Source: a virus. From it: a stretch of 64,000 bases of DNA. Numbering within the stretch: position 1 is the first letter of the stretch; each line of letters starts with the position of its first letter. Below are positions 4,438-37,362 of this stretch, piece after piece. The notes beneath the pieces are model-generated. The model ran no database searches, was not told the origin of the DNA, and was given only the letters and a program-made list of their open reading frames with translations. Both the position numbers and the translations under genes were made by a program. The DNA lies in the IMG/VR virus record IMGVR_UViG_3300027749_000095, positions 1-64,000 of that record. The stretch is one strand, 5' to 3'.

Positions 4438-7101
4438 TTGTATGTAGATGCATTCTTTCAGCGCGATGCTGATATCGTTAAAATTGTAGAACGTGGTACT
4501 GATGGGAAACGAATATTCAAAGAGTTTCCAGTGCGCTACACATTCTATCACACTGACCCAAAAGGCAAGTTCCAGAGCATCTATGGAGAGCCATTAAGCA
4601 GGGTCGTCTGTAAAAACTCAAAAGACTTCCGTAAAGAACTATCCATTCATAATAACAAAAAGTTATATGAAGCCGATATTAATCCTATCTTTAGATGTCT
4701 CAGTGAAAACTATCTTAATCAAGAAGCCCCTAAACTTAATGTAGCGTTTTTCGACATTGAGGTGGACTTTGATCCAGAACGTGGATATGCAAGCCCAGAA
4801 GATGCTTTCATGCCCATTACTGCTATCTCAATCCACCTACAATGGTTAGACACATTAATTTGTTTAGCTGTACCCCCAAAGAAGATGAAGGTTGCAGAAG
4901 CCGAAGAGCTAGTTAAAGATTTGCCTAACACGCATATTTTTGATAATGAAGCAGACATGTTAGACACATTCCTAAACATTATTCAAGACGCAGATGTACT
5001 AAGCGGATGGAATAGCGAAGGCTTTGATATTCCGTATACTGTAAATCGTGTTACTAAAGTTCTAAGTAAAGATGATACACGTAGATTCTGCCTGTGGGAT
5101 CAATATCCTAAAAAGCGAGAGTACGAGAAATATGGAAAAGCGGCTGTTACTTATGATTTGGTTGGTCGTGTTCATCTGGACAGTCTCGAGTTGTACCGCA
5201 AGTACACCTATGAAGAACGTCACACCTACAGACTGGATGCAATTGGAGAGATGGAAGTAGGCGAAACTAAAACGCAGTATGAAGGTACGTTGGATCAACT
5301 ATACAACAATGACTTCCGTAAGTTTGTTATCTATAACAGACAGGATACTACCCTATTAGATAAGCTAGATAAGAAATTAAAGTTCATCGATCTATCCAAC
5401 ACACTAGCACATGAGTGTACTGTGTTGTTGCAAACCACTATGGGTGCTGTGGCTGTTACTGAACAGGCCATTATTAACGAAGCTCACAAACGTGGATTTC
5501 AAGTTCCTAATCGTCCAGTACGAGATGAAGAAGCCGATAACAGTGCCGCTGGTGCATATGTTGCTTATCCCAAAGAAGGAATTCATGACTGGATCGGTTC
5601 ATTGGACATTAACTCATTGTATCCGTCGGCTATTAGAGCTCTAAACATGGGTCCGGAAACTATTGTGGGTCAGTTGCGTCAAACAATGACACAGGAATAT
5701 ATCGATAACCTTGTGGCCAAGGGCAAATCATTTGCCTCTGCGTGGGAAGGTATGTTTGGATCACTTGAGTATACTGCGGTAATGGACAAAGAAGTTGGCA
5801 CTGAGATTACTATTGACTGGCAAGATGGAGCAGTTGATATCCTAAGTGCTGCCGAAGTATATCAACTTATATTTGACAGCAATCAACCGTTTATGTTAAG
5901 TGCCAATGGCACAATCTTTACATATCAAACAGAAGGTATTATTCCGGGACTGTTAAAGCGTTGGTATAGCGAACGTAAAGAGATGCAGGCCAAACTCAAA
6001 GATACAATTAAAGCTGGAAACAAGATCGAGGAAGAATACTGGGACAAACGTCAGTTAGTCAAGAAGATTAACCTTAACAGTTTGTATGGTGCTATCCTAA
6101 ATCCAGGTTGCAGATTCTTTGACAAGCGTATTGGACAGTCAACTACACTAACAGGTCGTGCAATTGCTCGTCATATGGCAGGTAAGGTTAATGAAATTAT
6201 TACCGGTGAAAACAGCCACACCGGAAAGGCAATTATTTATGGTGACACTGACTCTTGTTATTTTAGTGCTTTTCGCACTTTGCAGAAGGATATTGAAAAA
6301 GGATTAATTCCTTGGTCTAAAGAAAGTGTAGTACAACTATACGACCAAATTGGTGAAGAAGTTAACAAGACATTCCCACAGTTTATGTTAGACGCCTTTC
6401 ACTGTCCAACGACACGTGGGGAAGTTATTAAAGCTGGTCGTGAGTTAGTTGCAATTAAAGGCTTGTTTATTACTAAAAAACGTTATGCTGTTTTGTATTA
6501 TGACAAGGAAGGCAAGCGAAGTGATATTGATGGTAAGCCAGGTAAGATCAAGGCTATGGGCTTGGATCTGAAACGTAGTGATACGCCAGAATTTATTCAA
6601 AACTTCTTAAGTGATGTGTTGGAGAAAGTCTTAACTGGTACTACTGAACAAGAAGTATTGGACTTTATTACTGAATTCCGTACTAACTTTAAAATACGTC
6701 CAGGGTGGGAGAAAGGTAGCCCTAAACGTGCTAACAATATTTCGGCATATCGCGGCAAGGAAGAAAAAGCAGGCAAGACTAATATGCCCGGACATGTTCG
6801 AGCAAGTCTTAACTGGAATACACTAAAGCGTATGATGGACGACAAGTATTCAATGAGCGTCACTGACGGTGCCAAAGTAATCGTCTGCAAACTCAAAGAT
6901 AATCCACTGGGGTTTACTAGCGTAGCCTATCCAGTAGATGAGCTTAGACTGCCCCAGTGGTTTAAGGATTTGCCATTTAATCACGAAGAAATGGAACAGA
7001 CGATTATTGATAACAAATTAGATAACCTGATTGGTGTTCTAAATTGGGATATCAGATCAACCGAACAGACAAATACTTTCAATAAATTATTTGACTTCTG
7101 A
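4438..7101 (+). CDS. 43: family B DNA polymerase (T4 gp43-like)
   Basis: Exonuclease motifs FFDIEV, GWNSEGFDIPY and YNRQD. Polymerase motifs SLDINSLYPS, KKINLNSLYG and YGDTDS. TTG start with AGGAG. Confidence 0.97.
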   Translation: MYVDAFFQRDADIVKIVERGTDGKRIFKEFPVRYTFYHTDPKGKFQSIYGEPLSRVVCKNSKDFRKELSIHNNKKLYEADINPIFRCLSENYLNQEAPKLNVAFFDIEVDFDPERGYASPEDAFMPITAISIHLQWLDTLICLAVPPKKMKVAEAEELVKDLPNTHIFDNEADMLDTFLNIIQDADVLSGWNSEGFDIPYTVNRVTKVLSKDDTRRFCLWDQYPKKREYEKYGKAAVTYDLVGRVHLDSLELYRKYTYEERHTYRLDAIGEMEVGETKTQYEGTLDQLYNNDFRKFVIYNRQDTTLLDKLDKKLKFIDLSNTLAHECTVLLQTTMGAVAVTEQAIINEAHKRGFQVPNRPVRDEEADNSAAGAYVAYPKEGIHDWIGSLDINSLYPSAIRALNMGPETIVGQLRQTMTQEYIDNLVAKGKSFASAWEGMFGSLEYTAVMDKEVGTEITIDWQDGAVDILSAAEVYQLIFDSNQPFMLSANGTIFTYQTEGIIPGLLKRWYSERKEMQAKLKDTIKAGNKIEEEYWDKRQLVKKINLNSLYGAILNPGCRFFDKRIGQSTTLTGRAIARHMAGKVNEIITGENSHTGKAIIYGDTDSCYFSAFRTLQKDIEKGLIPWSKESVVQLYDQIGEEVNKTFPQFMLDAFHCPTTRGEVIKAGRELVAIKGLFITKKRYAVLYYDKEGKRSDIDGKPGKIKAMGLDLKRSDTPEFIQNFLSDVLEKVLTGTTEQEVLDFITEFRTNFKIRPGWEKGSPKRANNISAYRGKEEKAGKTNMPGHVRASLNWNTLKRMMDDKYSMSVTDGAKVIVCKLKDNPLGFTSVAYPVDELRLPQWFKDLPFNHEEMEQTIIDNKLDNLIGVLNWDIRSTEQTNTFNKLFDF

Positions 7102-7139: not shown

Positions 7140-7868
7140 ATGCAAGATATTTTAAAAGACCTCGTAGGTCATACACACAACCTGGGCTTTTTGCCACTAG
7201 TTAAAATTACCGGTGATAAAGACACTGTGATTGAATCTATGGCTGAAGACCGTAGTGTTATTCTCACTGGCAAAACACACAAGGCGGTAGATGAGTTTGA
7301 CTTCGTATTTGGTATGCCTAACTTAGACAAGTTAGCATTACATTTAAAGAATCCGGAATACAAAGAAGGTGCAACTATTGGTGTTGTTAAAGCACAAAGA
7401 AATGGCGTTGAAGTTCCAGTTGGATTACATTTTGAAAATGCTGCTAAGGATTTCATAAACGATTACCGTTTTATGAATAGTGACATTATCAACGAAAAAC
7501 TTAAATCAGTCAAGTTTAAGGGTGCAACATGGGATGTTGAATTTGAGCCTAGTGTTATAAGTATTCAACGACTGCGTTTGCAATCGGCAGCGCATACTGA
7601 ACAATCAACATTCCAAGTTAAAACAGAAAATGGTAACTTAGTTGTTTTCTTTGGTGATGCAAGTACACACGCAGGTTCATTTGTGTTACATGCTAATGTA
7701 GACGGCAAATTGAAACAAACATGGGCATGGCCTGTAAATCAAGTAATGGCAATTCTTGCACTTGATGGTGACAAGACTATGCGTATTGCAGATGCAGGCG
7801 CTATGCAAATTACAGTTGATTCAGGCCTTGCTGAATACAACTATATTTTACCGGCACAATCTAAATAA
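7140..7868 (+). CDS. DNA sliding clamp (gp45/PCNA-like)
   Basis: 242 aa directly after the polymerase, two-domain beta-rich pattern, clamp-like C-terminus YNYILPA. Confidence 0.7.
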   Translation: MQDILKDLVGHTHNLGFLPLVKITGDKDTVIESMAEDRSVILTGKTHKAVDEFDFVFGMPNLDKLALHLKNPEYKEGATIGVVKAQRNGVEVPVGLHFENAAKDFINDYRFMNSDIINEKLKSVKFKGATWDVEFEPSVISIQRLRLQSAAHTEQSTFQVKTENGNLVVFFGDASTHAGSFVLHANVDGKLKQTWAWPVNQVMAILALDGDKTMRIADAGAMQITVDSGLAEYNYILPAQSK

Positions 7869-9547
7869 TGAATAAAAACCTGACTGCCAAGCAAAGCGAT
7901 TACGCCTACTTCTTGCCGGCCACATCAGGTTTCTACTCAACGTTCATAGGCAAGCAACGCTATGGAAATTATGTAGATCCTGCACGTATACCAGCAAGTT
8001 TAGCAAACGGTGTAGAAAGTCTCAATTATCTAAATCCAGATAAAGGTGCGTTCTACTTTAATCATTGCCTATACTCTGCAGGACACGCTAACTTAGATCT
8101 TACCAAACTAGATGAAACTGAGGACATGTTTCGTAATAGAGACCGAACAACAAGTTGGGTATTAGGTGACTCTGGTGGATTCCAGATCGGTAAAGGTGTA
8201 TGGGAAGGCGAGTGGCGTGACCCTACTGGTCCAGAAGTTGCTGCCATGTGGGCAGAAGTCAATGCTCGAGGTATTGAACTTGTACCACAACTGCATCCTA
8301 CTGGCGATCCCAAGACTGACAAGAATGGTAATCCAAAGTTTACCAAAGTAGATCATCCTAAGTTATATCAAGCAAGACTAGATGCCGCACAAAAAAAGCG
8401 CGAACAAGTGTTGGCTTGGATGGACACGCTTATGGACTACGGCATGGTACTTGATATTCCAGCATGGGTAGAACGTAGCCCTGCAGGACGTAAGGCCACT
8501 GGGATCACTTCATATGAACAAGCAGTTGAAGCGACCAAATACAATAATGAATACTTTATTAAACATCGCACAGGTGCTTGTAAATTTTTGAATGTATTGC
8601 AAGGAGAAACACATAAACAAGCTGAAGATTGGTATCAATCAATGAAAGCGTTTTGTGATACTAAGATTTATGGCGACAAAGCATTTAATGGCTGGGGTAT
8701 GGGTGGCCAGAACATGTGTGATATTCACCTTGTGCTTCTACGTCTAGTGGCTCTGAGATTTGACGGATTGTTAGAACAGGGTCAACATGATTGGATGCAC
8801 TTCTTAGGCACATCAAAGTTAGAATGGGCTGTGTTGCTAACTGACATTCAACGTGCTGTTCGAAAGTATCATAATCCAAACTTTACTATTAGCTTTGACT
8901 GTGCAAGTCCGTTCTTGGCAACTGCCAATGGACAGATTTATATCAACACAGAAACTGAAGATCGTACTAAATGGGTTTATCGTATGCAGGCCAGTGCAGA
9001 TGATAAAAAGTATGCCACTGACAGCCGATTGTTTAAAGATGCAGTATTACAAGATAAGATATTTGAAAAGTTTGAATCAAGTCCCATTATTGATCAAATA
9101 CAGATGAAAGAAATTTGCATCTATGCTCCCGGCGACCTAAATAAAAATGGTAAAGAGGGTGCAACAAGTTGGGATTCATTTAGTTATGCACTAATGATGG
9201 GACACAATGTTTGGATGCACTTGAATGCAGTACAGGAAGCAAATCGGCAATATGATTCGGGTAAATTACCATCAATGTTAGTTGACGAACGCTTTGATAG
9301 AGTGTACTATAAAGATATTGTAGAAGCTATATTTTCATGTGATAACCGAGATGATGCTAATGCTATTATTGAACACTACAGCAGATATTGGATGACCATT
9401 ATCGGTACACGTGGTGCTACTGGAAAGAAAACTGTTAATGCGGCAACTATGGCAAATGAACATTTTGAAATAGAAGTTAACTTGACTGTGGACAAAGTAG
9501 TTAAAGAAGACCCTAAAGAAAATAACTTTATGGATTTGTTTGAATAA
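7868..9547 (+). CDS. dpdA: DpdA-like 7-deazaguanine DNA transglycosylase (TGT fold)
   Basis: TGT motifs LGDSGGFQ, MVLDIP, LNVLQG, HFLG and SFDCAS. Clustered with folE, queE and a QueD paralog. Confidence 0.8.
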   Translation: MNKNLTAKQSDYAYFLPATSGFYSTFIGKQRYGNYVDPARIPASLANGVESLNYLNPDKGAFYFNHCLYSAGHANLDLTKLDETEDMFRNRDRTTSWVLGDSGGFQIGKGVWEGEWRDPTGPEVAAMWAEVNARGIELVPQLHPTGDPKTDKNGNPKFTKVDHPKLYQARLDAAQKKREQVLAWMDTLMDYGMVLDIPAWVERSPAGRKATGITSYEQAVEATKYNNEYFIKHRTGACKFLNVLQGETHKQAEDWYQSMKAFCDTKIYGDKAFNGWGMGGQNMCDIHLVLLRLVALRFDGLLEQGQHDWMHFLGTSKLEWAVLLTDIQRAVRKYHNPNFTISFDCASPFLATANGQIYINTETEDRTKWVYRMQASADDKKYATDSRLFKDAVLQDKIFEKFESSPIIDQIQMKEICIYAPGDLNKNGKEGATSWDSFSYALMMGHNVWMHLNAVQEANRQYDSGKLPSMLVDERFDRVYYKDIVEAIFSCDNRDDANAIIEHYSRYWMTIIGTRGATGKKTVNAATMANEHFEIEVNLTVDKVVKEDPKENNFMDLFE

Positions 9548-9584
9548 TATTACACGTGAAAACTTTCATGAAAAGAGTTATAAA

Positions 9585-9830
9585 ATGACCATGCCCGACG
9601 AACGATTTCGTGCAGTAGTACAAACTGAGAAATTCCTAAGAGAAATTCTTACTACCCCGCGAGTTCCTAAGAATATTAAAGATGGTGCTCGTTGGTGCTT
9701 ACGCCATTATCCCAGTAATTGGGACATGAAGATGGCCGCGGAGGGTGCACCGGATCACTTCCAAGAAACAATGGAACCGGTGACTAGACTTTTTAAACAA
9801 TACGAAGAGAGTAAAAAGAATGAAGCGTAA
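9585..9830 (+). CDS. small conserved protein (MT.PDER.RA...LRHYP, BPSL0761-like)
   Basis: The MTMPDERFRAV...RWCLRHYP motif suggests a start at ATG 9585 rather than 9540. Confidence 0.6.
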   Translation: MTMPDERFRAVVQTEKFLREILTTPRVPKNIKDGARWCLRHYPSNWDMKMAAEGAPDHFQETMEPVTRLFKQYEESKKNEA

Positions 9831-10338
9831 TTATACAGACGGTATATCAGAAGATGTAATTTACTTTATTGGCAAGGAAGTAGAGCATACTCCTGCATAT
9901 GGTATGAACACTTTATTTGTTACCGGGGTTCAACCAGTAGATGAAATTGCATCAAAGTTAAATGGATGTATACACATTTTCTTTGGCGCTAATCATAGCT
10001 TCAATCCAGCACGTAATGACTACAATGGTTGGAGGGCTTGGGAGGATATGATTCAATTCTTTCTCGATAAAGATTATCTATGTAGTTTAGATATTCCAAT
10101 CAGTGCTGTAGAAGAATTTAATGACGGTGGATTAAATGAGCATAACAACTTTATTCCACAGATAAGAGTTACAATTCCTTATTTAAAATTATGGAATTAT
10201 AATACAATGCTTAAAATTGATGACAAAGATTTTAATGCAACGAATCCTGGGGTGTGGTCAGTGCCAATGGGTGCCATAACTCAGCGAAAGTACTTTACAC
10301 CATGGCGCAATTATAACAACGATGAGATTATCAAATGA
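9820..10338 (+). CDS. hypothetical protein within deazaguanine cluster
   Basis: 172 aa, overlapping neighbours, with globular enzyme-like motifs EVEHTPAYG, HIFFGANHSF and KIDDKDFNATNPGVW. Confidence 0.75.
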   Translation: MKRNYTDGISEDVIYFIGKEVEHTPAYGMNTLFVTGVQPVDEIASKLNGCIHIFFGANHSFNPARNDYNGWRAWEDMIQFFLDKDYLCSLDIPISAVEEFNDGGLNEHNNFIPQIRVTIPYLKLWNYNTMLKIDDKDFNATNPGVWSVPMGAITQRKYFTPWRNYNNDEIIK

Positions 10339-10460
10339 ACGAAACACAAGCTCAACAACTAATAGATGCAGTAACTAGACAAAATCAATTACTTGAAGGT
10401 ATTGATTGGAAACTGTGGGAATTGTTTAAACACATAGTCCCACAGGAAGAAAAGAAATGA
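10335..10460 (+). CDS. 41-aa small protein (absent from ORF track)
   Basis: MNETQAQQLIDAVTRQNQLLEGIDWKLWELFKHIVPQEEKK. ATGA overlaps at both ends exactly fill the gap. Confidence 0.65.
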   Translation: MNETQAQQLIDAVTRQNQLLEGIDWKLWELFKHIVPQEEKK

Positions 10461-10879
10461 TTATAGGAAATGTAGTACCACTACAAAAAGATACAATGCG
10501 CCAAGATTGGCGTCCAAACAAAATGATTTGGGTTACCTTTAACAAAGAAGGTATGCACAAATACCCAGCCGCACTTACAGATCCTAACTTAGCAACAGGC
10601 GATGAGTATGATGTAAGTTTCCTGGGCTATCCGCATCGTCACATCTTCCACTTTAAAGTTTGGATTGGTGTTACACATGACGACCGTGATATTGAGTTTA
10701 TTCAGTTTAAACGCTGGTTGCTAAACTTGTACAAAGATAGTATACTAGCGTTAGACTACAAAAGTTGTGAAATGATGTCTGGAGATTTATATCAACAGAT
10801 TTCACAAAAGTATCCCAACCGTGAGGTTTGGATTGAGGTCTCCGAAGACGGGGAAAATGGTTCATTTATTAAGTACTAA
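10457..10879 (+). CDS. T-fold QueD/PTPS paralog, DpdL-like (putative CDG decarboxylase)
   Basis: LGYPHRHIFH (LxxxHRHxF) instead of QueD CxxxHGH. Also SCEM and C-terminal IEVSEDGENG. Confidence 0.7.
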   Translation: MIIGNVVPLQKDTMRQDWRPNKMIWVTFNKEGMHKYPAALTDPNLATGDEYDVSFLGYPHRHIFHFKVWIGVTHDDRDIEFIQFKRWLLNLYKDSILALDYKSCEMMSGDLYQQISQKYPNREVWIEVSEDGENGSFIKY

Positions 10880-10891
10880 GGAAAAGCTACA

Positions 10892-11152
10892 ATGGCTAAG
10901 AATTATAAAGATGGCAATTACTTTGAAAATCGGCCCGACATTGTTCGGATCTTTGACGACCTAGAAAAGTTTTTAGATTTTTGCAGGTTTGAGTTGTTGC
11001 CATTTAACGAGGCAGATCTCTATAACAGAGACAGTCAAGTGTGGAATCAGTTCTACTATGCAAGTCGCCCTAAGAAGCCTTGGAACGGTGAAAAGAAACA
11101 ATGGACTGGCGAACGTAAGCCTTACCAAGGCACTAAACCACGCTACGCCTAA
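10892..11152 (+). CDS. hypothetical protein
   Basis: 86 aa, AAGGA RBS, TAATG coupling to the glycosyltransferase. Confidence 0.7.
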   Translation: MAKNYKDGNYFENRPDIVRIFDDLEKFLDFCRFELLPFNEADLYNRDSQVWNQFYYASRPKKPWNGEKKQWTGERKPYQGTKPRYA

Positions 11153-12243
11153 TGACTATCTTCTTAATCGATTTAGAATCGGTTGAGACAAGGTACACGG
11201 GGCAGTGGAAGTCCCATGTACCTAATCTCTTACGAAAGGCAGGACACAATGTCAACATTATATCAGGTCCTACGGATATTCCTAGTGCTACCACTCCTGG
11301 AGCATTTCTCAACTTCGGTGGCACTAATATATACAAAGCTAGTCAAGTGGAGCAGATGGGCCGTTTATTTTGCGACGGAGCCGTTCGCCCAGGTGATCAT
11401 TTTATATTTACTGATGCTTGGCACCCTGGTATCATCAATCTCAAGTACATGAGTGAACTGCTGGGCATTCCGGTAACCACACACGGTCTCTGGCATGCTG
11501 GATCATATGATCCGCAAGACTTTCTTGGACGCTTGGTCGGAAACAAGCCTTGGGTTAGAAACGCTGAGAGAAGTTTTTATTATGCGTTTGATCACAACTA
11601 CTTTGCCACTGAATTCCATGTTAAGCTGTTCTTTGATAATCTGTTACATGATTATCCAACAGAAAATCCTTGGTACGAAGAAGACTGGGCAGAACGTTAC
11701 GACAGTGGTAAAATTGTACTAACTGGTTGGCCCATGGATTATATGGAAGCTACGTTAACTATGTATAAAGGCATGCCCAAGCGTGACCTTATACTGTTCC
11801 CTCATCGCATAGCGCCAGAGAAACAAGTTGAAATCTTCCGGGACCTTAAGCATCATTTGCCTCAATATGAATTTATCGTGTGCCAAGACCAGGAACTAAC
11901 AAAGAACGAATATCATAACTTGCTGGGCGAAGCTAAGATGGTGTTTAGCTGTAGTTTGCAAGAAACCCTAGGCATTGGCTGCTATGAAGGTGCTATTGTA
12001 GATGCTATTCCAATGGTACCTGACCGGCTTAGTTATACTGAAATGTATTTAGATACATTTAAGTATGAAAGTAAATGGACCGAGAGTTATGATGCGTATA
12101 CTGTATATCGACCAGATCTTTGCCGTGCCATTATATCACATATGGATAATTATAAAACTAGATTACCTATGTTAAAAAAACAAACGGAGATATTAAATGA
12201 GCGATTCTTCTCAGCTGCCGAACTCATTAGACGATTTAACTAA
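11152..12243 (+). CDS. GT-B fold glycosyltransferase (GT4-like)
   Basis: C-terminal ILFPHRIAPEKQ and SLQETLGIGCYEG...IPMVPD (E-x7-E motif). Confidence 0.8.
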   Translation: MTIFLIDLESVETRYTGQWKSHVPNLLRKAGHNVNIISGPTDIPSATTPGAFLNFGGTNIYKASQVEQMGRLFCDGAVRPGDHFIFTDAWHPGIINLKYMSELLGIPVTTHGLWHAGSYDPQDFLGRLVGNKPWVRNAERSFYYAFDHNYFATEFHVKLFFDNLLHDYPTENPWYEEDWAERYDSGKIVLTGWPMDYMEATLTMYKGMPKRDLILFPHRIAPEKQVEIFRDLKHHLPQYEFIVCQDQELTKNEYHNLLGEAKMVFSCSLQETLGIGCYEGAIVDAIPMVPDRLSYTEMYLDTFKYESKWTESYDAYTVYRPDLCRAIISHMDNYKTRLPMLKKQTEILNERFFSAAELIRRFN

Positions 12244-12595
12244 TACTATAACTATTTTAGGTAGTTCAGAGACTGCTACTATTACGGTCCCTGAATTATA
12301 TCGGTATGATGAAACTATGTTATCGTCTGATTTTTGTAGTATTTCAACTATTCATTCAGCGTCGGCATGCCCAACAACATTTACCATCGCCGCAAGCGAT
12401 ACTATCACTATTAGTAATATCAATTCGTCATTTGGTTGGACTGTTTCTAAAGAGTGGATTGATGCATTTCCAGAATGGGCACGAGTTGATGACATGTGTA
12501 AACAATATCCATCATTAGAAATTGCTCTAAGAAATTTCCAAACCATTTATCAGCTTGTAAAGGATGACTATGATAATCCAGCACCTAAAAAATAA
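12197..12595 (+). CDS. hypothetical protein
   Basis: 132 aa with Ser/Thr-rich N-terminus and C-terminal MCKQYPSL...Y.LVK. Confidence 0.6.
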   Translation: MSDSSQLPNSLDDLTNTITILGSSETATITVPELYRYDETMLSSDFCSISTIHSASACPTTFTIAASDTITISNINSSFGWTVSKEWIDAFPEWARVDDMCKQYPSLEIALRNFQTIYQLVKDDYDNPAPKK

Positions 12596-13046
12596 ATTCT
12601 TTTCTTTTTTAGAAGGACGTGATCGTAAACGTATTATTATGGATAGACTATACGATGAGCCGCTGTTAACTCGATATTATGTTTTCTTAAAGAACCGTAA
12701 ATGGTTTCCATTTAATGTGTTTATTCATAAGTTTCATAAATCGGATCCTGATGATGTACATGATCATCCATGGCCATATTTTACACTGATCTTAAAAGGT
12801 GGGTACTATGAATACGTCCCAATATTCAATAACAACGGAGAAAAAATTGGAGAAACCAAACATTGGCGGAAGCCTGGTCATTTTCGCACTTGCAGTGCTA
12901 ATAGTTATCATCGCATTGAACTAGACCCTAGTGTAACTGCATGGACTCTATTCATGCCCGGACCTCAGAAAAGAGAATGGGGTTTTCTTGTAAACAACAA
13001 ATGGATACACAATGACATCTATCTCGAGTCCCGTAAAAACACTTAA
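12564..13046 (+). CDS. cupin-fold protein
   Basis: HKFHKSD...HDHPW.Y.TLILKGGYYE and ..HRIEL...WTLF..G...REWGF. Confidence 0.8.
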   Translation: MTMIIQHLKNKFFSFLEGRDRKRIIMDRLYDEPLLTRYYVFLKNRKWFPFNVFIHKFHKSDPDDVHDHPWPYFTLILKGGYYEYVPIFNNNGEKIGETKHWRKPGHFRTCSANSYHRIELDPSVTAWTLFMPGPQKREWGFLVNNKWIHNDIYLESRKNT

Positions 13047-13461
13047 TACTGTAGGTGCTACAGTAGGTGGCATTGTGACTACTAACGGATTTAATGGAAC
13101 TAGTCATCCTTCGTATGGTGCTATTCCCCCATTAACAATTGGAAAAGTTTACACTACTAACGGTACTACTGGACAGTTTTTAATAAGTGGAGCCAATGGA
13201 ACTAATTGGTCGCATAATAATATTCCCGATAATGTTATGGTTGTTAAACAATCACCGCCAGAATTAGAAGTCAAAGGTCGCTTAGTGTTAAACGGACAAG
13301 ACTTAGAAGAACGGTTAAACACAATTGAAAAAGTCTTGTGTATACCCGAAAGAGATGTTATACTTGAAAAGAAGCATCCAAAGCTAAAAAGACTGTATGA
13401 CGAGTACATTGCGGCATTGGGAAAGTATAGAACATTTGAAGCAATAAAGGAATCAAAATAA
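13012..13461 (+). CDS. hypothetical protein
   Basis: 149 aa with Thr/Gly-rich N-terminus and C-terminal LEERL..IE...LEKKHPKL..LY.EY. Confidence 0.65.
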   Translation: MTSISSPVKTLNTVGATVGGIVTTNGFNGTSHPSYGAIPPLTIGKVYTTNGTTGQFLISGANGTNWSHNNIPDNVMVVKQSPPELEVKGRLVLNGQDLEERLNTIEKVLCIPERDVILEKKHPKLKRLYDEYIAALGKYRTFEAIKESK

Positions 13462-13691
13462 TGTTACACGAATCAATTAAGTTAAATGAATTCATGGCTA
13501 AGGAAGAAGCTGGTTTTAGACTTAGAGTCAAACACTGGAAGTGTGCCGGGCCTGTCAATTTAAATAGCCTCGAATTTACACAAGAGTGCATTGATGTAAA
13601 TGGTGAGGTAAATTTTAGCTCTACTTATAACTTTTTCCTAACTAATGATGAAATAAAATCATTGTGTAACGGATTAATGGCAATCAAATAA
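13461..13691 (+). CDS. hypothetical protein
   Basis: 76 aa, AAGGA RBS, TAATG coupling. Confidence 0.6.
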   Translation: MLHESIKLNEFMAKEEAGFRLRVKHWKCAGPVNLNSLEFTQECIDVNGEVNFSSTYNFFLTNDEIKSLCNGLMAIK

Positions 13692-13704
13692 TTACAATGG
13701 TTAT

Positions 13705-14079
13705 ATGGCAACTGACTTAGAAAAGGCATTAAATGAAAAACGAGCACCATGGACTGACATTGAGTACAGAACAAAAGACTTTTGGATCTTCAGAGATGCA
13801 TATCCAGTTACCCAGGGGCATTTGTTATTTGTGCCTACCCAAGAGTCGAGTAACAATCTCTGGGAGTGCTACAAAGCAGCCTACAAGTTTGGATACGACG
13901 GTGTTGCAGCAGAACGTTGGGACGCTTTTAACATTGGGCAAAACTGCGGTGAAGCAGCCGGTCAAACAGTAATGTATCCGCATGTACACATGATTCCACG
14001 GCGCACTGGTGACATGGAAAATCCACGTGGCGGTGTTAGACATGTTATTCCAGAAAAAGGAAACTATGTCTCCAAGTGA
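13705..14079 (+). CDS. HIT-family nucleotide hydrolase
   Basis: DAYPVTQGHLLFVP and NIGQNCGEAAGQTVMYPHVHMIPRR. The first His of the histidine triad is replaced by Tyr. Confidence 0.9.
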   Translation: MATDLEKALNEKRAPWTDIEYRTKDFWIFRDAYPVTQGHLLFVPTQESSNNLWECYKAAYKFGYDGVAAERWDAFNIGQNCGEAAGQTVMYPHVHMIPRRTGDMENPRGGVRHVIPEKGNYVSK

Positions 14080-14272
14080 TCATGAAGTTATTGTAGACTG
14101 GCATATGCAAGGTGCTAATTGGTGGAACGAAACTTGTGCTATGGTATTAGAAGTATTTGGGTTGCCGGGCCATCGATTTGTTTACACTCCAAGCGAAGAC
14201 TTTATGACATTTTGTTTTAAGTCAAAAAAAGATGCAGACTTGTGTCGTATACTGTTAAGCGAACGATTATGA
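14066..14272 (+). CDS. hypothetical protein
   Basis: 68 aa from ATG 14066 with AAGGA RBS, WWNE.CA.V.EVFGLPG.RF motif. Confidence 0.6.
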   Translation: MSPSDHEVIVDWHMQGANWWNETCAMVLEVFGLPGHRFVYTPSEDFMTFCFKSKKDADLCRILLSERL

Positions 14273-15057
14273 AAATAGGTATTGTTGGATTGGGGTTTGT
14301 CGGCAATGCTATCCGGCGAGCATATGAAGACTTGTTTACCAATGTTATAGTAGTGGATGTAGATCCTACTAAATCCACAGGAACTTATACAGACCTACAA
14401 TGCTGCGATGCTGTGTTTGTGTGTGTTCCTAGTCCAGCTAAAGATACCGGAGAATGTGATACTAGCATACTAAATTCCGTATTGTACCTACTGCGAGATT
14501 ATAACAATGTTATTATCAGTAAGACTACTGCAACGCCGCAATTTTACGAAAAGATGCAGGCAGTTTATCCTAATTTAGTACACATACCAGAATTTCTAAA
14601 AGCTAGCAATGCTCGTGAAGATTATCTTAAAGAAGCTAATGCTATTATAGGCGGAAGTATTGCCGCCTATAGAAATGAAGCGGCTCGTATTATTAAACTA
14701 GCCCAACCAATAACACACGTAGAACATTGTTCAATAGGTGAAGCTGCCTTTATCAAATATACACTTAATACATACCTTGCTACTAAAGTTGTCTTTATGA
14801 ATGAAACTGCCGAACTAGCAGTAGCACACGGATACAACTGGGATACAATTAGAATGTATCTAGCTGAAGACAATCGAATTGGTTTGAGTCACATGCAAGT
14901 GCCCGGACCGGATGGATACTACGGATTTGGTGGTATGTGTTTTCCAAAAGATACAACTGCTTGGTTAAAATATGCAAATAAATTAGGTGTACAATTGAGC
15001 GTATTGAAAACAGCAATAAAGAAAAATATCCTATTAAGGTTGCAAAAACCTAAATAA
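14269..15057 (+). CDS. UDP-glucose/GDP-mannose 6-dehydrogenase family protein (short form)
   Basis: MKIGIVGLGFVG Rossmann motif, FVCVPSP, PEFL, catalytic GFGGMCFPKD. The C-terminal UDP-binding domain is absent. Confidence 0.88.
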   Translation: MKIGIVGLGFVGNAIRRAYEDLFTNVIVVDVDPTKSTGTYTDLQCCDAVFVCVPSPAKDTGECDTSILNSVLYLLRDYNNVIISKTTATPQFYEKMQAVYPNLVHIPEFLKASNAREDYLKEANAIIGGSIAAYRNEAARIIKLAQPITHVEHCSIGEAAFIKYTLNTYLATKVVFMNETAELAVAHGYNWDTIRMYLAEDNRIGLSHMQVPGPDGYYGFGGMCFPKDTTAWLKYANKLGVQLSVLKTAIKKNILLRLQKPK

Positions 15058-15068
15058 TACTGTATAAT
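15040..15068 (+). promoter_or_regulatory. composite promoter: sigma70-type with embedded late box
   Basis: TTGCAA-N17-TATAAT with CTAAATA (15050-15056) in the spacer, upstream of folE. Confidence 0.6.
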
Positions 15069-15109
15069 AATACGAAAGACATCCACGTCATTAACTCGGA
15101 GAATAAAAA

Positions 15110-15928
15110 TTGACACAAACATTTACCCCAGATCCTGCACTTAAACCCACACCAGAATTTAAATCAGACGAATATGTACCTTTAAAGAAAGAAGTCTTTA
15201 TTAAAGCGGGCGAAGACATGTCCGATAAAGGATATCAAGAAGGGACGTTAGCAGGAGCAATCCGCATGAGGATGAGACGTGATAACAAACGTTTCTGGGC
15301 TGGAGACAATATTAGCGACTATCTGCATGACTCAGATAAAGAGCATCTAATTAATGAAGCCACAGTAGCATTTGAACAAGTATTAGATACCTTGCTTATT
15401 GATCGTGAAAATGATCCAAACAGTAAAGGCACAGCCAAGCGACTGGCTAAAATGTACTTTAATGAAATTATGGAAGGTAGATATGAACCGGCACCAGATG
15501 CAACAGCTTTTCCAAATGACAGCGCCGACCGTTACGAAGGTATGCTTGTGGTACGTAGTGAGCTTCGAAGTATGTGTTCTCATCATCACCAGCCTGTCTC
15601 TGGGGTTGCCTACATCGGTATCATTGCCGCTAATAAACTTATTGGTCTCAGCAAGTATACCAGAATAGCACAGTGGTGTGCTCGTCGTGGCACACTACAA
15701 GAAGAATTATGTAATGACATTGCTAGAGAAATTGCTAAAGCAACAGAATCTGAAAATGTAGCAGTGTACATCCAGGCCATTCATGGATGTTGCGAGAATC
15801 GTGGCATCATGGCGCATAGTTCATTAACGCAGACTACAGTACTTAAAGGGTCGTTTAAAGACGATCCCCATACAAAAAAAGAGTTCTTTGATAACATTAA
15901 ACTGCAACAAGAGTTTGCACCACGCTAA
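15110..15928 (+). CDS. folE: GTP cyclohydrolase I
   Basis: SMCSHHHQP, IGLSKYTR, LQEEL and HGCCENRG motifs. TTG start with GGAGA RBS and an N-terminal extension. Confidence 0.95.
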   Translation: MTQTFTPDPALKPTPEFKSDEYVPLKKEVFIKAGEDMSDKGYQEGTLAGAIRMRMRRDNKRFWAGDNISDYLHDSDKEHLINEATVAFEQVLDTLLIDRENDPNSKGTAKRLAKMYFNEIMEGRYEPAPDATAFPNDSADRYEGMLVVRSELRSMCSHHHQPVSGVAYIGIIAANKLIGLSKYTRIAQWCARRGTLQEELCNDIAREIAKATESENVAVYIQAIHGCCENRGIMAHSSLTQTTVLKGSFKDDPHTKKEFFDNIKLQQEFAPR

Positions 15929-15936
15929 GGAATATT

Positions 15937-16233
15937 ATGAATTGGTTAAAATTAAAATTACGCAACTGGGTATTAAGTGCCCATGATGAATGTGAACGTG
16001 ACAGCAATATTGTTAATTCAAAAAGAAGTATATCTGTATCAACAAAAGATATGAATAGTGATCCAACTCTAAACTTTAAGGTATACTCAGCAGTAGGTGG
16101 CAAGGTGGTAGAATTTTCACGCTATGATAGACGGTCTGATCGAAATGATCATACTACATATATCATTACTAATGAACAAGACTTCGGCGAGCGGATTGCA
16201 AAGATTGCAACTATGGAAAATTTAAAGTCTTAA
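15937..16233 (+). CDS. hypothetical protein
   Basis: 98 aa, AAGGA RBS, LNFKVYSAVGGKVVEF..YD motif. Confidence 0.7.
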   Translation: MNWLKLKLRNWVLSAHDECERDSNIVNSKRSISVSTKDMNSDPTLNFKVYSAVGGKVVEFSRYDRRSDRNDHTTYIITNEQDFGERIAKIATMENLKS

Positions 16234-16235
16234 TT

Positions 16236-16817
16236 ATGCAAATTCACGGATGGTTTCCTCGCCCTATTTGTGTTGTAGACAACGTATTATTGCACGAGTT
16301 AGGAACATTTGAAAATAGAACTAAAGAGCTTGTAAATCAAAGTTTCTATAGAAATATAGTATTAAGTGTAAATTCTACACACCCTACTAATAATACTCTA
16401 CATCTTGATCCTATTTTTAAACCGCTAGTAAGTATGATATATTCAACAGCTAGAGAATTTATGCAAGAAATAGGATATTATCAATTTTTAAATTCTCTTA
16501 AAATAAATTCAATGTGGACTAATGTTAGCCAGGAAGGTGATTTCCTTTATCCACACATTCATGGTTCAAGTTTACTTTCAGGTGTATATTATATTAAAGC
16601 GCCCATTGACAGTAAAATTAAGTTTTTCAACAACATAACAGATATGGTTCACCCTGCAAGTAACCCAACCCCGTTTACACAATCATATTGTGAGTACGAA
16701 TGTGACCCAGGTAGACTTATCATGTTTAGAAGTGATTTCCTCCACGGCACAGGAAAACAATCTGCCGGAGAGAAAATTGTAATTTCATTTAATATGGGTA
16801 CAGGAATATATGAGTAA
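16236..16817 (+). CDS. 2OG-Fe(II) oxygenase superfamily protein (TIGR02466-like)
   Basis: W.N.......PHIH..S.LSGVYYI, G.LIMF.S...H, and K.VISFN. Confidence 0.82.
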   Translation: MQIHGWFPRPICVVDNVLLHELGTFENRTKELVNQSFYRNIVLSVNSTHPTNNTLHLDPIFKPLVSMIYSTAREFMQEIGYYQFLNSLKINSMWTNVSQEGDFLYPHIHGSSLLSGVYYIKAPIDSKIKFFNNITDMVHPASNPTPFTQSYCEYECDPGRLIMFRSDFLHGTGKQSAGEKIVISFNMGTGIYE

Positions 16818-17661
16818 AATTAAAATTGCAGAGCTGTTTTACAGCATTCAAGGCGAAGGACGCTATATGGGTGTTCCGAGTGTGTTTCTACGCACATTCG
16901 GATGTAACTTTAAATGTGCAGGATTTGGCATGCCACGAGGAGAACTAAGTACAGAAGTTGAAACTATTTCTTTTGCTCATGACAATACTCCTTACAAGGA
17001 CTATAAAGATTTGCCGCTTGTTAGCACAGGGTGTGATAGTTATGCTAGTTGGGATCCACGTTTCAAAGACCTAAGCCCAATGCTTACAAGTGAAGCAATT
17101 GTAGATCGCATCATGGAAATTATTCCACATAGCGAATGGCATGACGAACATCTAGTAATTACGGGTGGTGAGCCATTGCTAGGTTGGCAACGTGCTTATC
17201 CTGACTTGCTAAACAATCCTAAAATGAAGGCGTTAAAAGAGATTACGTTTGAAACAAACGGTACTCAAAAACTTACACCGGAGTTTAAAGAATATCTGAG
17301 GAAGTGGAATAGTGTAGTAGGCAAGGAACTTACATTTTCAGTAAGTGCTAAACTTCCGGCAAGTGGTGAGAAGTGGAAAGAAGCCATTTGTCCAGAAGTA
17401 GTGTGTGAATACGAACAAGTGGGCACAGCATATTTAAAATTTGTAGTGGCAACAGAGCAGGATATTGCAGATGCCGAATGTGCTGTGGGTGCATTTTGTT
17501 CTGCAGGATTTAAAGGCCATGTGTACTTGATGCCGGTGGGTGGTGTGGAAAGTGTTTATACACTCAACGCAAAGAATGTGGCACTAGCAGCCATGAAGCG
17601 CGGATGGCGTTATAGTGACCGTTTACAAGTGCCGTTATTTAAAAATGAGTGGGGAACTTAA
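16810..17661 (+). CDS. queE: 7-carboxy-7-deazaguanine synthase (radical SAM)
   Basis: ELFYSIQGEG, VFLRTFGCNFKC...CDS, VITGGEPLL, ETNGT and RYSDRLQV. Confidence 0.92.
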   Translation: MSKIKIAELFYSIQGEGRYMGVPSVFLRTFGCNFKCAGFGMPRGELSTEVETISFAHDNTPYKDYKDLPLVSTGCDSYASWDPRFKDLSPMLTSEAIVDRIMEIIPHSEWHDEHLVITGGEPLLGWQRAYPDLLNNPKMKALKEITFETNGTQKLTPEFKEYLRKWNSVVGKELTFSVSAKLPASGEKWKEAICPEVVCEYEQVGTAYLKFVVATEQDIADAECAVGAFCSAGFKGHVYLMPVGGVESVYTLNAKNVALAAMKRGWRYSDRLQVPLFKNEWGT

Positions 17662-20638: not shown

Positions 20639-21736
20639 ATGAGCGAGATCCTTTCACGTACCGTTGGCCCTAAGGCTGCTAAAAAATCTCTTCGCCGTGC
20701 TTTTAAAGCCAATCGTCCGCTGTTCCTTTGGGGACCTCCTGGAATTGGTAAAAGCGATATCGTAAAGCAAATGGGCGTTGAGCTCGAAGCTCACGTTATT
20801 GATATCCGTTTGAGCCTATGGGATCCCACTGATATTAAAGGTATTCCATTTTTTAACAGCACCGTTAATAAAATGGAATGGGCTCCCCCTACTGAATTGC
20901 CCGACGAAGTTATGGCAGCTAAGTACAAGAAAATCATCTTGTTCTTGGACGAAATGAACTCTGCGGCTCCTGCTGTTCAGGCAGCGGCTTACCAATTGGT
21001 GCTGAACCGTAAGGTTGGTACTTACCGCTTGCCTGACAACGTTTTGATTGTTGCCGCTGGCAACCGTGAAACGGACAGAGGTGTTACTTTCCGTATGCCT
21101 GCTCCGTTGGCTAATCGTTTCGTTCACTTGGAGATGCGTGTTGATTGGGACGACTACTTTGGCTGGGCTACTGAAAACAAAATCCACAAGGACGTGGTTG
21201 GCTTTTTGACTTTCTCCAAGAAAGACCTGTACGACTTTGATCCAAAGTCAGCATCACGTGCCTTTGCTACTCCTCGTAGTTGGGCGTTTGTTAGCGAACT
21301 GTTGTTTGATGACGACGAAGATGACAGCACAATGACTGACTTGATTTCGGGTGCGGTCGGTGAAGGTCTTGCAGTTAAGTTTATGGCTCATCGTAAGATT
21401 AGCTCAAAATTGCCTGACCCTACAGATATTTTAGCGGGCAAAGTTAAGAAAATGGACACCAAGGAAATTAGTGCCATGTACTCGCTGACAGTGTCATTGT
21501 GCTATGAATTGAAAGATGCCAGCGACAAAAACGACAAGAAGTTTAACGATAAAGTTAACTACTTCTTCCAATTTATGATGGACAATTTTGAAACTGAATT
21601 GGTTGTAATGGGTACCAAACTTGCATTGACTCAATACCAATTGCCGTTGGATCCAGATGAGATCAAATGTTTTGATGACTTCCATGCCAAATATGGTAAG
21701 TACATTGCGGCCGCTACAGATAAACATTCACGCTAA
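20639..21736 (+). CDS. MoxR-like AAA+ ATPase
   Basis: Walker A GPPGIGKS, Walker B LFLDEMN, AAGNR and PLANRF. AGGAG RBS. Confidence 0.92.
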   Translation: MSEILSRTVGPKAAKKSLRRAFKANRPLFLWGPPGIGKSDIVKQMGVELEAHVIDIRLSLWDPTDIKGIPFFNSTVNKMEWAPPTELPDEVMAAKYKKIILFLDEMNSAAPAVQAAAYQLVLNRKVGTYRLPDNVLIVAAGNRETDRGVTFRMPAPLANRFVHLEMRVDWDDYFGWATENKIHKDVVGFLTFSKKDLYDFDPKSASRAFATPRSWAFVSELLFDDDEDDSTMTDLISGAVGEGLAVKFMAHRKISSKLPDPTDILAGKVKKMDTKEISAMYSLTVSLCYELKDASDKNDKKFNDKVNYFFQFMMDNFETELVVMGTKLALTQYQLPLDPDEIKCFDDFHAKYGKYIAAATDKHSR

Positions 21737-21753: not shown

Positions 21754-21782
21754 TTGACAGGACCTGCGGGTCCTGTTATAAT
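21754..21782 (+). promoter_or_regulatory. consensus sigma70 promoter with palindromic spacer
   Basis: TTGACA-N17-TATAAT with ACAGGACC-TGCG-GGTCCTGT spanning the spacer. Confidence 0.85.
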
Positions 21783-21813
21783 ATATACATACAGTAAATA
21801 TTTAGGAGCAGAA

Positions 21814-22989
21814 ATGACAAGTTATTTAGACCCAATTGTTGACAAGATTGTTGTTGCACGAGTTGGATTGCTGTTACGCCATCCGTTCTTTGGCAACATG
21901 GCTACCCGGCTTAGAATTGAAGATGCTACCGCTTGGTGTGCTACCGCTGCCACCGACGGACGTCACTTGTATTACAATCGAGACTTCTTCGAAGATCTAA
22001 CTGTTAAGCAGGTTGAGTTTGTTGTTGCACACGAAATCCTGCATAATGTGTTTGAGCATATGCTTCGTGTAGAAGGCCGTGATCGCAAAGTTTGGAACAT
22101 TGCCGCTGACTACACTGTTAATGGCACATTGGTACGTGATCGTATTGGTGAAGTTCCTCCAAAGATTAAAATCTTCCATGACCCAAAACACTACGGCAAA
22201 AGTTCAGAACAAGTGTACGATGAAATTTTTGGTGAGATGGATGACCAAGAATTAGATGCACTTGGAGAATTACTCGACGAGCACATTGATTGGGAGAAGG
22301 AAGGCAAAGGTCGTCCTGCATACTCAAAAGAAGAGCTCAAGCAAATCCGTGATGAGATCAAAGAAGCTATGATGACTGCGGCGCAGGCTGCGGGTGCGGG
22401 AAATGTGCCGGCAGAGATCGGGCGTATGATTAAAGAGCTTACTGAGCCTAAGATGAACTGGCGTGAAATTCTGCGTCAACAAATTCAAAGCACTATTAAA
22501 AGTGACTATACCTTTATGCGTCCAAATCGTAAGGGCTGGCATATGAGTGCTATTCTTCCGGGCACTAACTATGCCGAAACAATTGATATTTGTATTGCTA
22601 TCGATATGTCAGGGTCAATTGGAGATGATCAAGCTAAAGACTTTATTAGCGAGATCAAAGGCATTATGGAAGAATACAAAGACTACAAAATTAAAGTGTG
22701 GTGCTTTGATACCAGAGTCTATAATGAACAAGACTTTGACGGGTATAACGATGACATTATGGAATACCAAGTTAAAGGTGGTGGTGGTACTGACTTTGAC
22801 GCTAACTGGACTTACATGAAAGAACACGACATTACCCCTAAGAAGTTTATCATGTTCACAGATGGGTATCCCTGGAGCTCATGGGGTGATGAAAACTACT
22901 GTGATACAGTATTCATCATCCACGGTAATACTAGTATTGTACCACCCTTTGGAGCTCACGCTTACTATGAGTTTAGTGATAAAACTTGA
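21814..22989 (+). CDS. metallopeptidase-like (HExxH) plus vWA domain protein (DUF2201-like), partner of MoxR ATPase
   Basis: TAATDG, AHEILH, MIDAS IDMSGSI, GGGGTDF and FTDGYP. Start at ATG 21814 after AGGAG. Confidence 0.88.
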   Translation: MTSYLDPIVDKIVVARVGLLLRHPFFGNMATRLRIEDATAWCATAATDGRHLYYNRDFFEDLTVKQVEFVVAHEILHNVFEHMLRVEGRDRKVWNIAADYTVNGTLVRDRIGEVPPKIKIFHDPKHYGKSSEQVYDEIFGEMDDQELDALGELLDEHIDWEKEGKGRPAYSKEELKQIRDEIKEAMMTAAQAAGAGNVPAEIGRMIKELTEPKMNWREILRQQIQSTIKSDYTFMRPNRKGWHMSAILPGTNYAETIDICIAIDMSGSIGDDQAKDFISEIKGIMEEYKDYKIKVWCFDTRVYNEQDFDGYNDDIMEYQVKGGGGTDFDANWTYMKEHDITPKKFIMFTDGYPWSSWGDENYCDTVFIIHGNTSIVPPFGAHAYYEFSDKT

Positions 22990-37355: not shown

Positions 37356-37362
37356 TATTTAT
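37356..37362 (-). promoter_or_regulatory. late promoter (ATAAATA)
   Basis: ATAAATA overlapping the stop codon of the giant gene, about 20 nt upstream of ATG 37335. Confidence 0.62.

Follow-up and report, generated by a model that had tools for sequence, protein, structure and literature searches.

A GT4-like glycosyltransferase gene linked to the QueC-less 7-deazaguanine DNA-modification cluster of a PA5oct-like jumbo phage

Results

The deazaguanine genes of the locus

We analyzed a 64,000-base stretch of viral DNA (the window), which forms the start of the 72,199-base IMG/VR record IMGVR_UViG_3300027749_000095, and within it a gene cluster predicted to exchange guanine in phage DNA for a 7-deazaguanine and containing a gene for a glycosyltransferase (GT). 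All nine genes assigned to this cluster by the initial annotation were found, in a single run on the plus strand; they encode a DpdA-type transglycosylase, DpdL, the GT, a cupin-like protein, a HIT-family hydrolase, a UDP-sugar dehydrogenase-like protein, FolE, a 2-oxoglutarate (2OG)-Fe(II) oxygenase, and QueE. By sequence comparison, the source of the window is a fragment of a PA5oct-like jumbo phage genome, the completeness of the record being estimated by CheckV at approximately 20%. The replication region is syntenic with that of the 287-kb Pseudomonas jumbo phage PA5oct, with protein identities of 33–69% and a common order of family-B polymerase, a 242-residue clamp-like protein, the DpdA-like gene, QueE, a 5'-3' exonuclease, and a MoxR-type ATPase. 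A megablast search of the cluster against phage records gave no DNA-level match. Two sequencing runs that contain most of the stretch carry the label freshwater metagenome, and either could be the sample of origin.

Conservation was assessed by a GT-based scan of viral contigs, which recovered at least 598 related stretches; the best 80 of these (67–92% identity) are referred to here as relatives. Presence of a gene was scored only in contigs that extend far enough (testable relatives), 18 of the relatives being fully flanked.

The first gene of the cluster (7868..9547, +) is predicted, based on orthology to PA5oct QCG76197, to encode a DpdA-type DNA guanine transglycosylase of the TGT superfamily. 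The 559-residue protein exhibits 34% identity over 83% to QCG76197 (E 5e-75), which is listed as DpdA3, and its motif GDSGGFQ is invariant in 31 homologs; we take DSGGFQ to be the catalytic loop of the TGT/DpdA enzymes. Alignment of the 559-residue family by hhalign to the DpdA2-type proteins of phages ACP17, BUDD, and BCSR5 gave a probability of 88.7% (E 2.5e-6) over 196 columns, which include DSGGxQ, LQG, and HxLG. Searches of PDB sequences with phmmer and hmmsearch gave no useful match. The gene was present in all 50 testable relatives. The protein is thus, at the level of sequence, an ortholog of the PA5oct protein catalogued as DpdA3, with base exchange on DNA as its predicted activity. 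The initial annotation of a DpdA/TGT-like gene is upheld by the homology to PA5oct DpdA3 and by GDSGGFQ, but finds no backing in a Pfam TGT or PDB sequence match. DpdA3 activity could not be assayed in E. coli by Cui et al., according to the available text of their paper (PMC10516641).

The gene at 10457..10879 (+) encodes a 140-residue QueD paralog that its motif, homology, and position in a tree identify as DpdL. The motif reads LGYPHRHIF in the window, and LxxxHRHxF is present in 68/68 relatives; this motif, as opposed to the CxxxHGH of QueD, is the published signature of DpdL (Cui, Hutinet et al. NAR 2023, PMC10516641). The protein shares 56% identity with QCG76199, the PA5oct protein catalogued as DpdL, and 30% with gp040, the DpdL of the Cellulophaga phage phiST (E 7e-6), and it gave no match to PF01242. 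In a tree of 15 DpdL and 3 QueD sequences, the DpdL clade was split from canonical QueD with a support of 100/100. A role as a decarboxylase of 7-carboxy-7-deazaguanine (CDG) has been proposed for DpdL: in the available text of Cui et al., DpdL is suggested to convert CDG to 7-deazaguanine (DG), acting on the free base, and is described from phages with DpdA, FolE, QueD, and QueE and without QueC (PMC10516641).

Two further genes of the pathway lie downstream. FolE, a GTP cyclohydrolase I (15110..15928, +; PF01227, E 2.1e-39), carries an N-terminal extension of 88 residues and was present in 45 of 51 testable relatives. QueE, the radical-SAM CDG synthase (16810..17661, +; phrog_2076, E 5.5e-51), was present in 33 of 34; it scores under the cut-offs of the NCBIfam QueE models. 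The radical-SAM cysteines C32, C36, and C75 are kept in 48–49 of 49 aligned sequences, and the third of these aligns with the CX3CX2C motif of ACP17 QueE. Approximately 38 residues are inserted between the second and third cluster cysteines, an insert common to PA5oct and BUDD that is not found in ACP17 and BCSR5.

The lack of QueC and QueD in the window, as initially noted, was confirmed, and neither was found in the 72-kb record, where DpdA, FolE, and QueE are adjacent. Because the record represents only about 20% of the genome, these absences say little about the genome as a whole. Canonical QueD was found in 5/5 complete GT-bearing isolate genomes and in 3/5 large related fragments; its absence from the window can thus be attributed to the fragment, with relatives carrying QueD elsewhere. 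No QueC was detected in the same five isolate genomes and five fragments, the sole near-match being in BUDD at 19.2 bits against a cut-off of 22 bits and far from the BUDD cluster.

The PA5oct proteins DpdA3 (QCG76197), DpdL (QCG76199), and QueE (QCG76203) are listed in Supplementary Data S1 of Cui et al., which places FolE and QueD of PA5oct elsewhere in its genome and gives no QueC (PMC10516641). The proteins listed there are orthologs of the window genes. These orthologs, together with the family matches of FolE and QueE, bear out the initial call of a QueC-less 7-deazaguanine DNA-modification cluster, and we consider it very probable that the cluster is a deazaguanine module. The core cluster belongs to the published QueC-less pathway of the type that yields 2'-deoxy-7-deazaguanine (dDG). 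Both the DpdL name and the PA5oct set have been in print since 2023.

A GT4-like glycosyltransferase and its linkage to deazaguanine genes

The gene at 11152..12243 (+) encodes a 363-residue protein, which its AlphaFold2 fold, Foldseek matches, conserved motifs, and synteny characterize as a GT4-like GT-B glycosyltransferase. The AlphaFold2 model, built from 63 full-length family members of 28–53% identity, has a mean predicted local distance difference test (pLDDT) score of 94.5 and a predicted TM-score (pTM) of 0.91. Foldseek matched it to 383 PDB chains at E <= 0.001, the best being glycogen synthase, BshA, MshA, and GlgM (E 3e-10 to 1e-8, TM approximately 0.64), all retaining GT-B enzymes of families GT4/GT5. 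At the sequence level, PF00534 (Glycos_transf_1) is matched by 37 of the 63 family members (best E 3e-08), the window GT itself giving no Pfam match, and the family profile matches the glycosyltransferase chain 8xsg (E 2e-4); the single sequence searched against the PDB returned only chance matches to chemotaxis proteins. Within the 63 sequences, E279 is invariant and E271, R219, and K224 are nearly so. We take this EX7E pair and the basic residues to be the GT4-type motif, the basic residues presumably serving the diphosphate.

The family is large. A search of 1.84 billion representatives gave 1123 relatives with E <= 0.001, of which 242 reached E <= 1e-30, and the family comprises more than 8000 proteins in a library at 90% identity, or 1123 representatives at 50% identity. 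Predicted viral structures close to the GT model come from its own family only (ACP17 with a TM of 0.86 and a 370-residue protein with 0.81), followed by generic glycosyltransferases. The 363-residue protein is thus, as judged from its model, a genuine GT4-like GT-B glycosyltransferase of a putatively phage-specific subfamily, with a donor and an acceptor that are predicted only. For the PA5oct ortholog, EST35_0317, the annotation goes no further than hypothetical protein. Isoelectric point (pI) was considered as a pointer to a DNA or small-molecule acceptor and dropped, the DNA-acting DpdA (pI 5.6–5.7) being as acidic as the GT family (median pI 5.7).

The GT is closely linked to the deazaguanine genes. 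DpdL lies 241–1142 bp upstream of the GT in 67/67 testable relatives. In the isolate collection, GT homologs occur in 22 records, DpdL in 28, and both in 17, and in these 17 the gap between them ranges from 15 bp to 2.8 kb in five gene orders. The PA5oct group has DpdA-GT-DpdL; Phosso has DpdL-GT with DpdA 170 kb away; ACP17 has p172-DpdA2-GT-DpdL-QueE (p172 is described below); BUDD has GT-DpdA-DpdL-QueE; and BCSR5 has DpdL, four genes, and then GT-DpdA. For X1, only a GT-DpdL spacing of 1.5 kb was seen. The remaining five GT records, in which the homolog is remote (26% identity over 66%), belong to a single Xanthomonas/Erwinia phage group. In PhiXhv-12, the one of the five that was examined, the GT adjoins Gat-QueC (PF06508, E 2.3e-49), a fusion of GATase and QueC (L098 4669-6192) annotated as L-glutamine-D-fructose-6-phosphate aminotransferase (GlmS). 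Further neighbors of this GT are a PIG-L deacetylase, a GFO/IDH/MocA oxidoreductase, and a GNAT acetyltransferase; the last, a 545-residue protein considered as a DpdA candidate, was ruled out as such, hhalign of the DpdA family against it being negative.

Outside the isolates, an uncultured lineage with GT identities of 29–30% and a polymerase identity of 27% has the order polymerase-DpdL-GT-x-x-DpdA-like. A second GT paralog is found near FolE/QueE (L093 1-633, L094 2784-3680; 48% and 21% identity to the window GT), so that this distant uncultured cluster holds two glycosyltransferases. In five of five positive controls, the GT profile detected exactly one gene per genome, and always inside the cluster. 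The synteny of the GT with dpdA and the LxxxHRHxF gene, which had been proposed as a check, was thus found for DpdL (67/67) and DpdA (50/50) among the relatives and extends to five other phage lineages.

These positions bear on the possibility that the cluster is a plain dDG system like that of phiST, and that the GT is directed at something else, for example glycans of the host envelope, a protein of the phage, or a different DNA base, sharing no more than an early-gene neighborhood. In its favor, phiST makes dDG with FolE, QueD, QueE, DpdL, and DpdA3 and without a GT, dDG has no obvious acceptor for a GT, GT4 enzymes commonly act on envelope precursors, and the cluster is situated amid replication genes (polymerase, clamp-like protein, exonuclease), where unrelated early genes gather. 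However, the GT lies no more than 3 kb from DpdL or Gat-QueC in 18 of 18 isolate records examined despite the five gene orders, the linkage holds across lineages with polymerases only 26–27% identical, and in Phosso the GT adjoins DpdL even though DpdA is 170 kb away. A different target is also disfavored by the sharp drop in structural similarity beyond the GT's own family (ACP17, TM 0.86) among viral structures, and by the window, which has no pyrimidine hydroxymethylase and ThyX as its thymidylate synthase. We consider this alternative unlikely, and that the GT functionally belongs to the deazaguanine module probable.

The sugar enzymes near the GT vary with the lineage: BCSR5 and PhiXhv-12 encode PIG-L, PA5oct encodes an epimerase-like protein, and the window lineage has a short dehydrogenase-like protein. 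The PA5oct cluster encodes a NAD epimerase/dehydratase-like half protein with a Rossmann fold (PF01370, E 6e-07) and a phosphoribosyltransferase-domain protein (PF00156, E 2e-11). Such lineage-specific sugar enzymes beside the GT would fit different sugars in different lineages.

Some further features of these clusters were observed. The PA5oct genes EST35_0320 and 0321 (L001 15419-16383), between DpdL and QueE, are both annotated as hypothetical. In BCSR5, a PIG-L/LmbE-like deacetylase (L085 6812-7519) lies two genes upstream of the GT, with an E of 4.7e-05 that is under the Pfam cut-off, and the cluster also holds AAA_28 and PAPS-reductase-like genes.

Accessory neighbors of the glycosyltransferase

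The initial annotation viewed the GT, dehydrogenase, cupin, HIT hydrolase, and oxygenase as one embedded sugar-tailoring set. The HIT, 2OG-Fe(II) oxygenase, and GT-B proteins proved to be present as named, as did FolE, QueE, and the LxxxHRHxF paralog of QueD, all co-oriented on the plus strand. The idea of a single set did not survive comparison across the fully flanked relatives: the dehydrogenase-like gene occurs in 13/18 at two positions, HIT in 5/18, and the 2OG oxygenase in 1/18, and the cupin is lineage-specific.

The dehydrogenase-like gene (14242..15057, +) encodes a short, 271-residue protein similar to the UDP-sugar 6-dehydrogenases (UGDH). The NAD (PF03721, E 2e-14) and central (PF00984, E 1.3e-18) domains named initially are there, as is the catalytic cysteine, the motif GGMCFPKD corresponding to GGSCFPKD, but the C-terminal UDP-binding domain is missing: there was no match to PF03720, and the protein scores under the NCBIfam cut-offs. 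It aligns to residues 3–294 of the 450-residue chain 3gg2. The homologs in relatives are all 255–283 residues long, so that the gene encodes a shortened but conserved version of the enzyme rather than being disrupted; in the window a gap of 52 bases separates it from FolE. It follows the polymerase in 8 and the GT in 5 of the 13 fully flanked relatives that have it, the other 5 being without it within 10 kb. The UGDH central domain was found in none of the five complete GT-bearing isolate genomes, nor anywhere on the contigs of the five relatives without a local copy. Its absence from 5/18 relatives and 5/5 isolates rules the protein out as an obligate supplier of the sugar.

The 2OG-Fe(II) oxygenase (16236..16817, +; PF13759, E 2.5e-15) had been suggested to create a hydroxyl handle for the sugar. 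Its presence in only 1/18 fully flanked relatives rules out this role; across all 80 loci it was found in 3, each at approximately 30% identity and none at the position seen in the window. The nearest relative (L002), which has an identical polymerase and DpdL, lacks the gene and has no space for it between p98 and QueE. By these comparisons the oxygenase gene is a recent insertion outside the module. The HIT-family hydrolase (13705..14079, +; PF01230, E 6.1e-09) is likewise accessory.

The cupin-like protein (12564..13046, +) is supported by a PHROG match (phrog_4786, E 5.9e-35) and has no support from Pfam. It was present in 46 of 49 testable relatives and in 0/5 GT-bearing isolate genomes, the latter search having no positive control and so showing little. 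Three small genes also lie within the run. One, p86, encodes a lineage-specific basic protein (pI 9.0) with no family match between DpdL and the GT (10892..11152, +; 65 of 71 testable relatives). A BPSL0761-family protein (9540..9830, +; NCBIfam NF041728, E 1.1e-18), between DpdA and p172, is a variable neighbor present in 10/18 fully flanked relatives. The third, p172 (9820..10338, +), is by its conservation in the lineage a partner of the cluster, being present in 57 of 59 testable relatives; it lies inside the ACP17 cluster, is encoded distally in PA5oct by EST35_0364, and went undetected in Phosso, BUDD, and BCSR5. The model of p172 (pLDDT 86) matched no solved fold above background (Foldseek E >= 0.03), and the ESM Atlas gave no usable match.

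Elsewhere in the window, the polymerase gene (4438-7101) is uninterrupted, whereas a gene for a Hef-like homing endonuclease divides that of PA5oct (L001 5608-10834). The MoxR-type AAA ATPase (20639-21736, +; phrog_1297, E 3.9e-102) is conserved with PA5oct and is followed by a DUF2201 metallopeptidase/VWA-like protein (21754-22989, +; PF13203, E 3.9e-39). A flavin-dependent thymidylate synthase, ThyX, is encoded at 25051-25734 (+; PF02511, E 1.3e-45), and no ThyA-type pyrimidine hydroxymethylase was found within the 64-kb window. On the minus strand, a single open reading frame of 4427 residues (37359-50642), in which one carbohydrate-binding module of the CBM_5_12 family was recognized (PF02839, E 1.8e-08), is located amid baseplate and tail-fiber genes; its product is probably a giant protein of the tail or baseplate.

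Discussion

The gene identities and the conserved linkage described above can be joined with the literature to give a pathway. FolE would form dihydroneopterin triphosphate (H2NTP), canonical QueD, encoded outside the fragment, would convert this to carboxytetrahydropterin (CPH4), and QueE would produce CDG. DpdL would then convert CDG, probably to DG as has been proposed, and the DpdA-type transglycosylase would exchange guanine in the phage DNA for the resulting base. These five steps are inferred from published work. For a sixth step, we infer that the GT4-like enzyme may add a sugar from a nucleotide sugar to the deazaguanine, either as the free base or within DNA, with the outcome that the phage DNA would carry a sugar-bearing deazapurine. 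We regard the chances as even that the window holds such an entity, a DpdL-type module for 7-deazaguanine modification of DNA that lacks QueC, belongs to a PA5oct-like jumbo phage, and has a dedicated GT as an addition. That the sugar is present on the DNA base, as a glycosylated deazaguanine, we place slightly short of even.

The sugar of huimycin, a glycosylated deazapurine, reportedly sits on the 2-amino group, and by this analogy the candidate linkage that we favor is through nitrogen, with the sugar attached to the base at its exocyclic 2-amino group. Because the most similar enzymes of solved structure work on small molecules, the GT is as likely to glycosylate the free base ahead of its insertion as to act on DNA. 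Where PIG-L adjoins the GT the sugar could be of a glucosamine type, and another sugar could be used with the short UGDH-like or epimerase-like enzymes.

The small-molecule enzymes also raise the question of whether the GT takes part in the pathway with a sugar that never becomes part of the DNA. The sugar might be borne by a transient or carrier-bound intermediate of the base, serving activation, solubility, self-protection of the nucleotide pool, or export, or by a deazaguanine in RNA or in a small molecule. All of the closest solved enzymes (BshA, MshA, GlgM, LmbT, SenB) act on small molecules, the phosphoribosyltransferase-domain gene of the PA5oct cluster hints at free-base chemistry, and DpdL itself is modeled on the free base in the available text of Cui et al. 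(PMC10516641). HuiG, from the huimycin pathway of Kutzneria albida, is described as glycosylating a free 7-deazapurine base with UDP-GlcNAc (bioRxiv 10.64898/2026.04.15.718813). Yet the GT is not accompanied by any conserved glycosidase or other enzyme for removing sugars, a transient sugar brings no evident selective gain, unlike decoration of DNA, and the GT has a modular presence across the DpdL tree, as for an optional end decoration. We consider a sugar confined to such intermediates or products quite improbable.

Several observations weigh against a sugar-bearing deazaguanine in DNA or weaken parts of the evidence for it. The weak point is the acceptor: DG and dDG have no hydroxyl group, and the GT is not accompanied by a conserved hydroxylase. 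The GT profile found no homolog in four of four complete GT-less DpdL genomes examined (phiST, RHph_I1_18, Ahp1, and D479, out of 11 such records). Rows of the DpdL tree that have a linked GT are intermingled with those that have none, supported branches forcing at least 3 changes, a number as low being obtained in 182 of 500 shuffles. The synteny within the PA5oct-like group is largely shared descent, this being the reason that the search was extended outside the lineage. The assignment of the transglycosylase has its own difficulties: the 559-residue protein matches no Pfam or NCBIfam model, 31/31 of its family members give no match to TGT (PF01702), and hhalign of its family to phiST DpdA3 gave a probability of only 4.4%, which weakens the DpdA3 label. 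Finally, all viruses in the mass-spectrometry table of Cui et al. are GT-less, and expression in E. coli of DpdL and DpdA from either phiST or ACP17 is described in the available text as giving no dDG (PMC10516641). The reconstitution with the ACP17 proteins lacked the GT, a requirement for which may explain the lack of product, but because that with the proteins of GT-less phiST failed too, the failure does not single out the GT.

The interleaved tree and the existence of GT-less DpdL phages indicate that the GT is unnecessary for making or inserting the base. Taken with the Gat-QueC context in PhiXhv-12, the tree reads as that of a modular add-on gained or lost repeatedly, as would be expected of a final decoration. 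By extension, and still more tentatively than for the window itself, the GT4-like family may constitute a modular deazaguanine-dedicated glycosyltransferase that serves different pathways, DpdL-type in the window and Gat-QueC-type in PhiXhv-12, giving a sugar-bearing purine in DNA with a sugar that varies by lineage.

We know of sugars on phage DNA only on pyrimidines. If correct, the prediction would represent the first sugar-bearing purine in natural DNA, with a glycosylated deazapurine as a new class of DNA base, and would bear on restriction, CRISPR, and glycosylase-based defense, on nanopore base-calling of environmental viromes, and on the enzymology of a GT acting on a purine. The initial annotation knew of no glycosylated deazaguanine among characterized products, and this agrees with the literature searched: neither a glycosylated deazaguanine in DNA nor an assignment of this GT was found, preprint supplements lying outside the search. 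The eight compounds listed by Cui et al. as 7-deazaguanine DNA modifications all have small C7 substituents, and the main text of that paper nowhere contains the term 'glycosyl' (PMC10516641). What is new here is that a GT4-like glycosyltransferase is tied to deazaguanine clusters in several unrelated phages. The prediction concerns cultured phages as well, among them PA5oct, ACP17, Phosso, and BUDD. PA5oct DNA is reported to resist five restriction enzymes with G-containing sites, from which a modified G was inferred, its identity not being given in the available text (PMC12191111).

Comparison with known systems

A close counterpart from the same phage lineage is the PA5oct cluster (EST35_0316-0322), which shares with the window a polymerase of 47–69% identity and the order polymerase-clamp-DpdA...QueE-exonuclease-ATPase, and which has orthologs of DpdA (34% identity), GT (39%), DpdL (56%), and QueE (33%). 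It differs in its DpdA-GT-DpdL order, in a DpdL motif of LxxxHFHxF, in having FolE and QueD elsewhere, and in its epimerase-like and phosphoribosyltransferase genes. PA5oct is without the UGDH central domain and without a cupin match, the cupin search having no positive control, and no HIT or 2OG oxygenase match was found in the 25-kb locus around its cluster, the rest of the genome not having been searched. The dDG system of phiST, which with its close relatives is the only source of measured dDG according to the available text of Cui et al. (PMC10516641), likewise combines a QueC-less cluster with a DpdL carrying LxxxHRHxF, a DpdA-type transglycosylase, FolE, and QueE. In contrast to the window, it has no GT, its DpdA3 is 259 residues rather than 559 residues in length, its DpdL is only 30% identical, and the cluster additionally has MazG and an ATPase.

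Two groups of enzymes offer parallels for the proposed transfer of the sugar. In HuiG and the dapiramicin-type glycosylated 7-deazapurines, a sugar is placed onto a 7-deazaguanine-derived base, a likeness drawn from the described reaction; these are products of bacterial secondary metabolism, made from preQ0 after O-methylation and without machinery for insertion into DNA.

The alpha- and beta-glucosyltransferases of phage T4 act on 5-hydroxymethylcytosine in DNA. They are not among the Foldseek matches listed for the window GT, the nearest of which are GT4/GT5 enzymes, and the window GT would have as its acceptor a purine that bears no hydroxymethyl group, with action on DNA as a proposal only. 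Like the role suggested for the window GT, the T4 enzymes represent phage GT-B proteins that transfer the sugar of a UDP-sugar onto a non-canonical DNA base as an optional layer on top of base replacement. A family of GT4-like enzymes that decorates deazaguanine with different sugars in different phages would thus, if the prediction holds, parallel the diverse glycosylation of hydroxymethylcytosine in the T-even phages.

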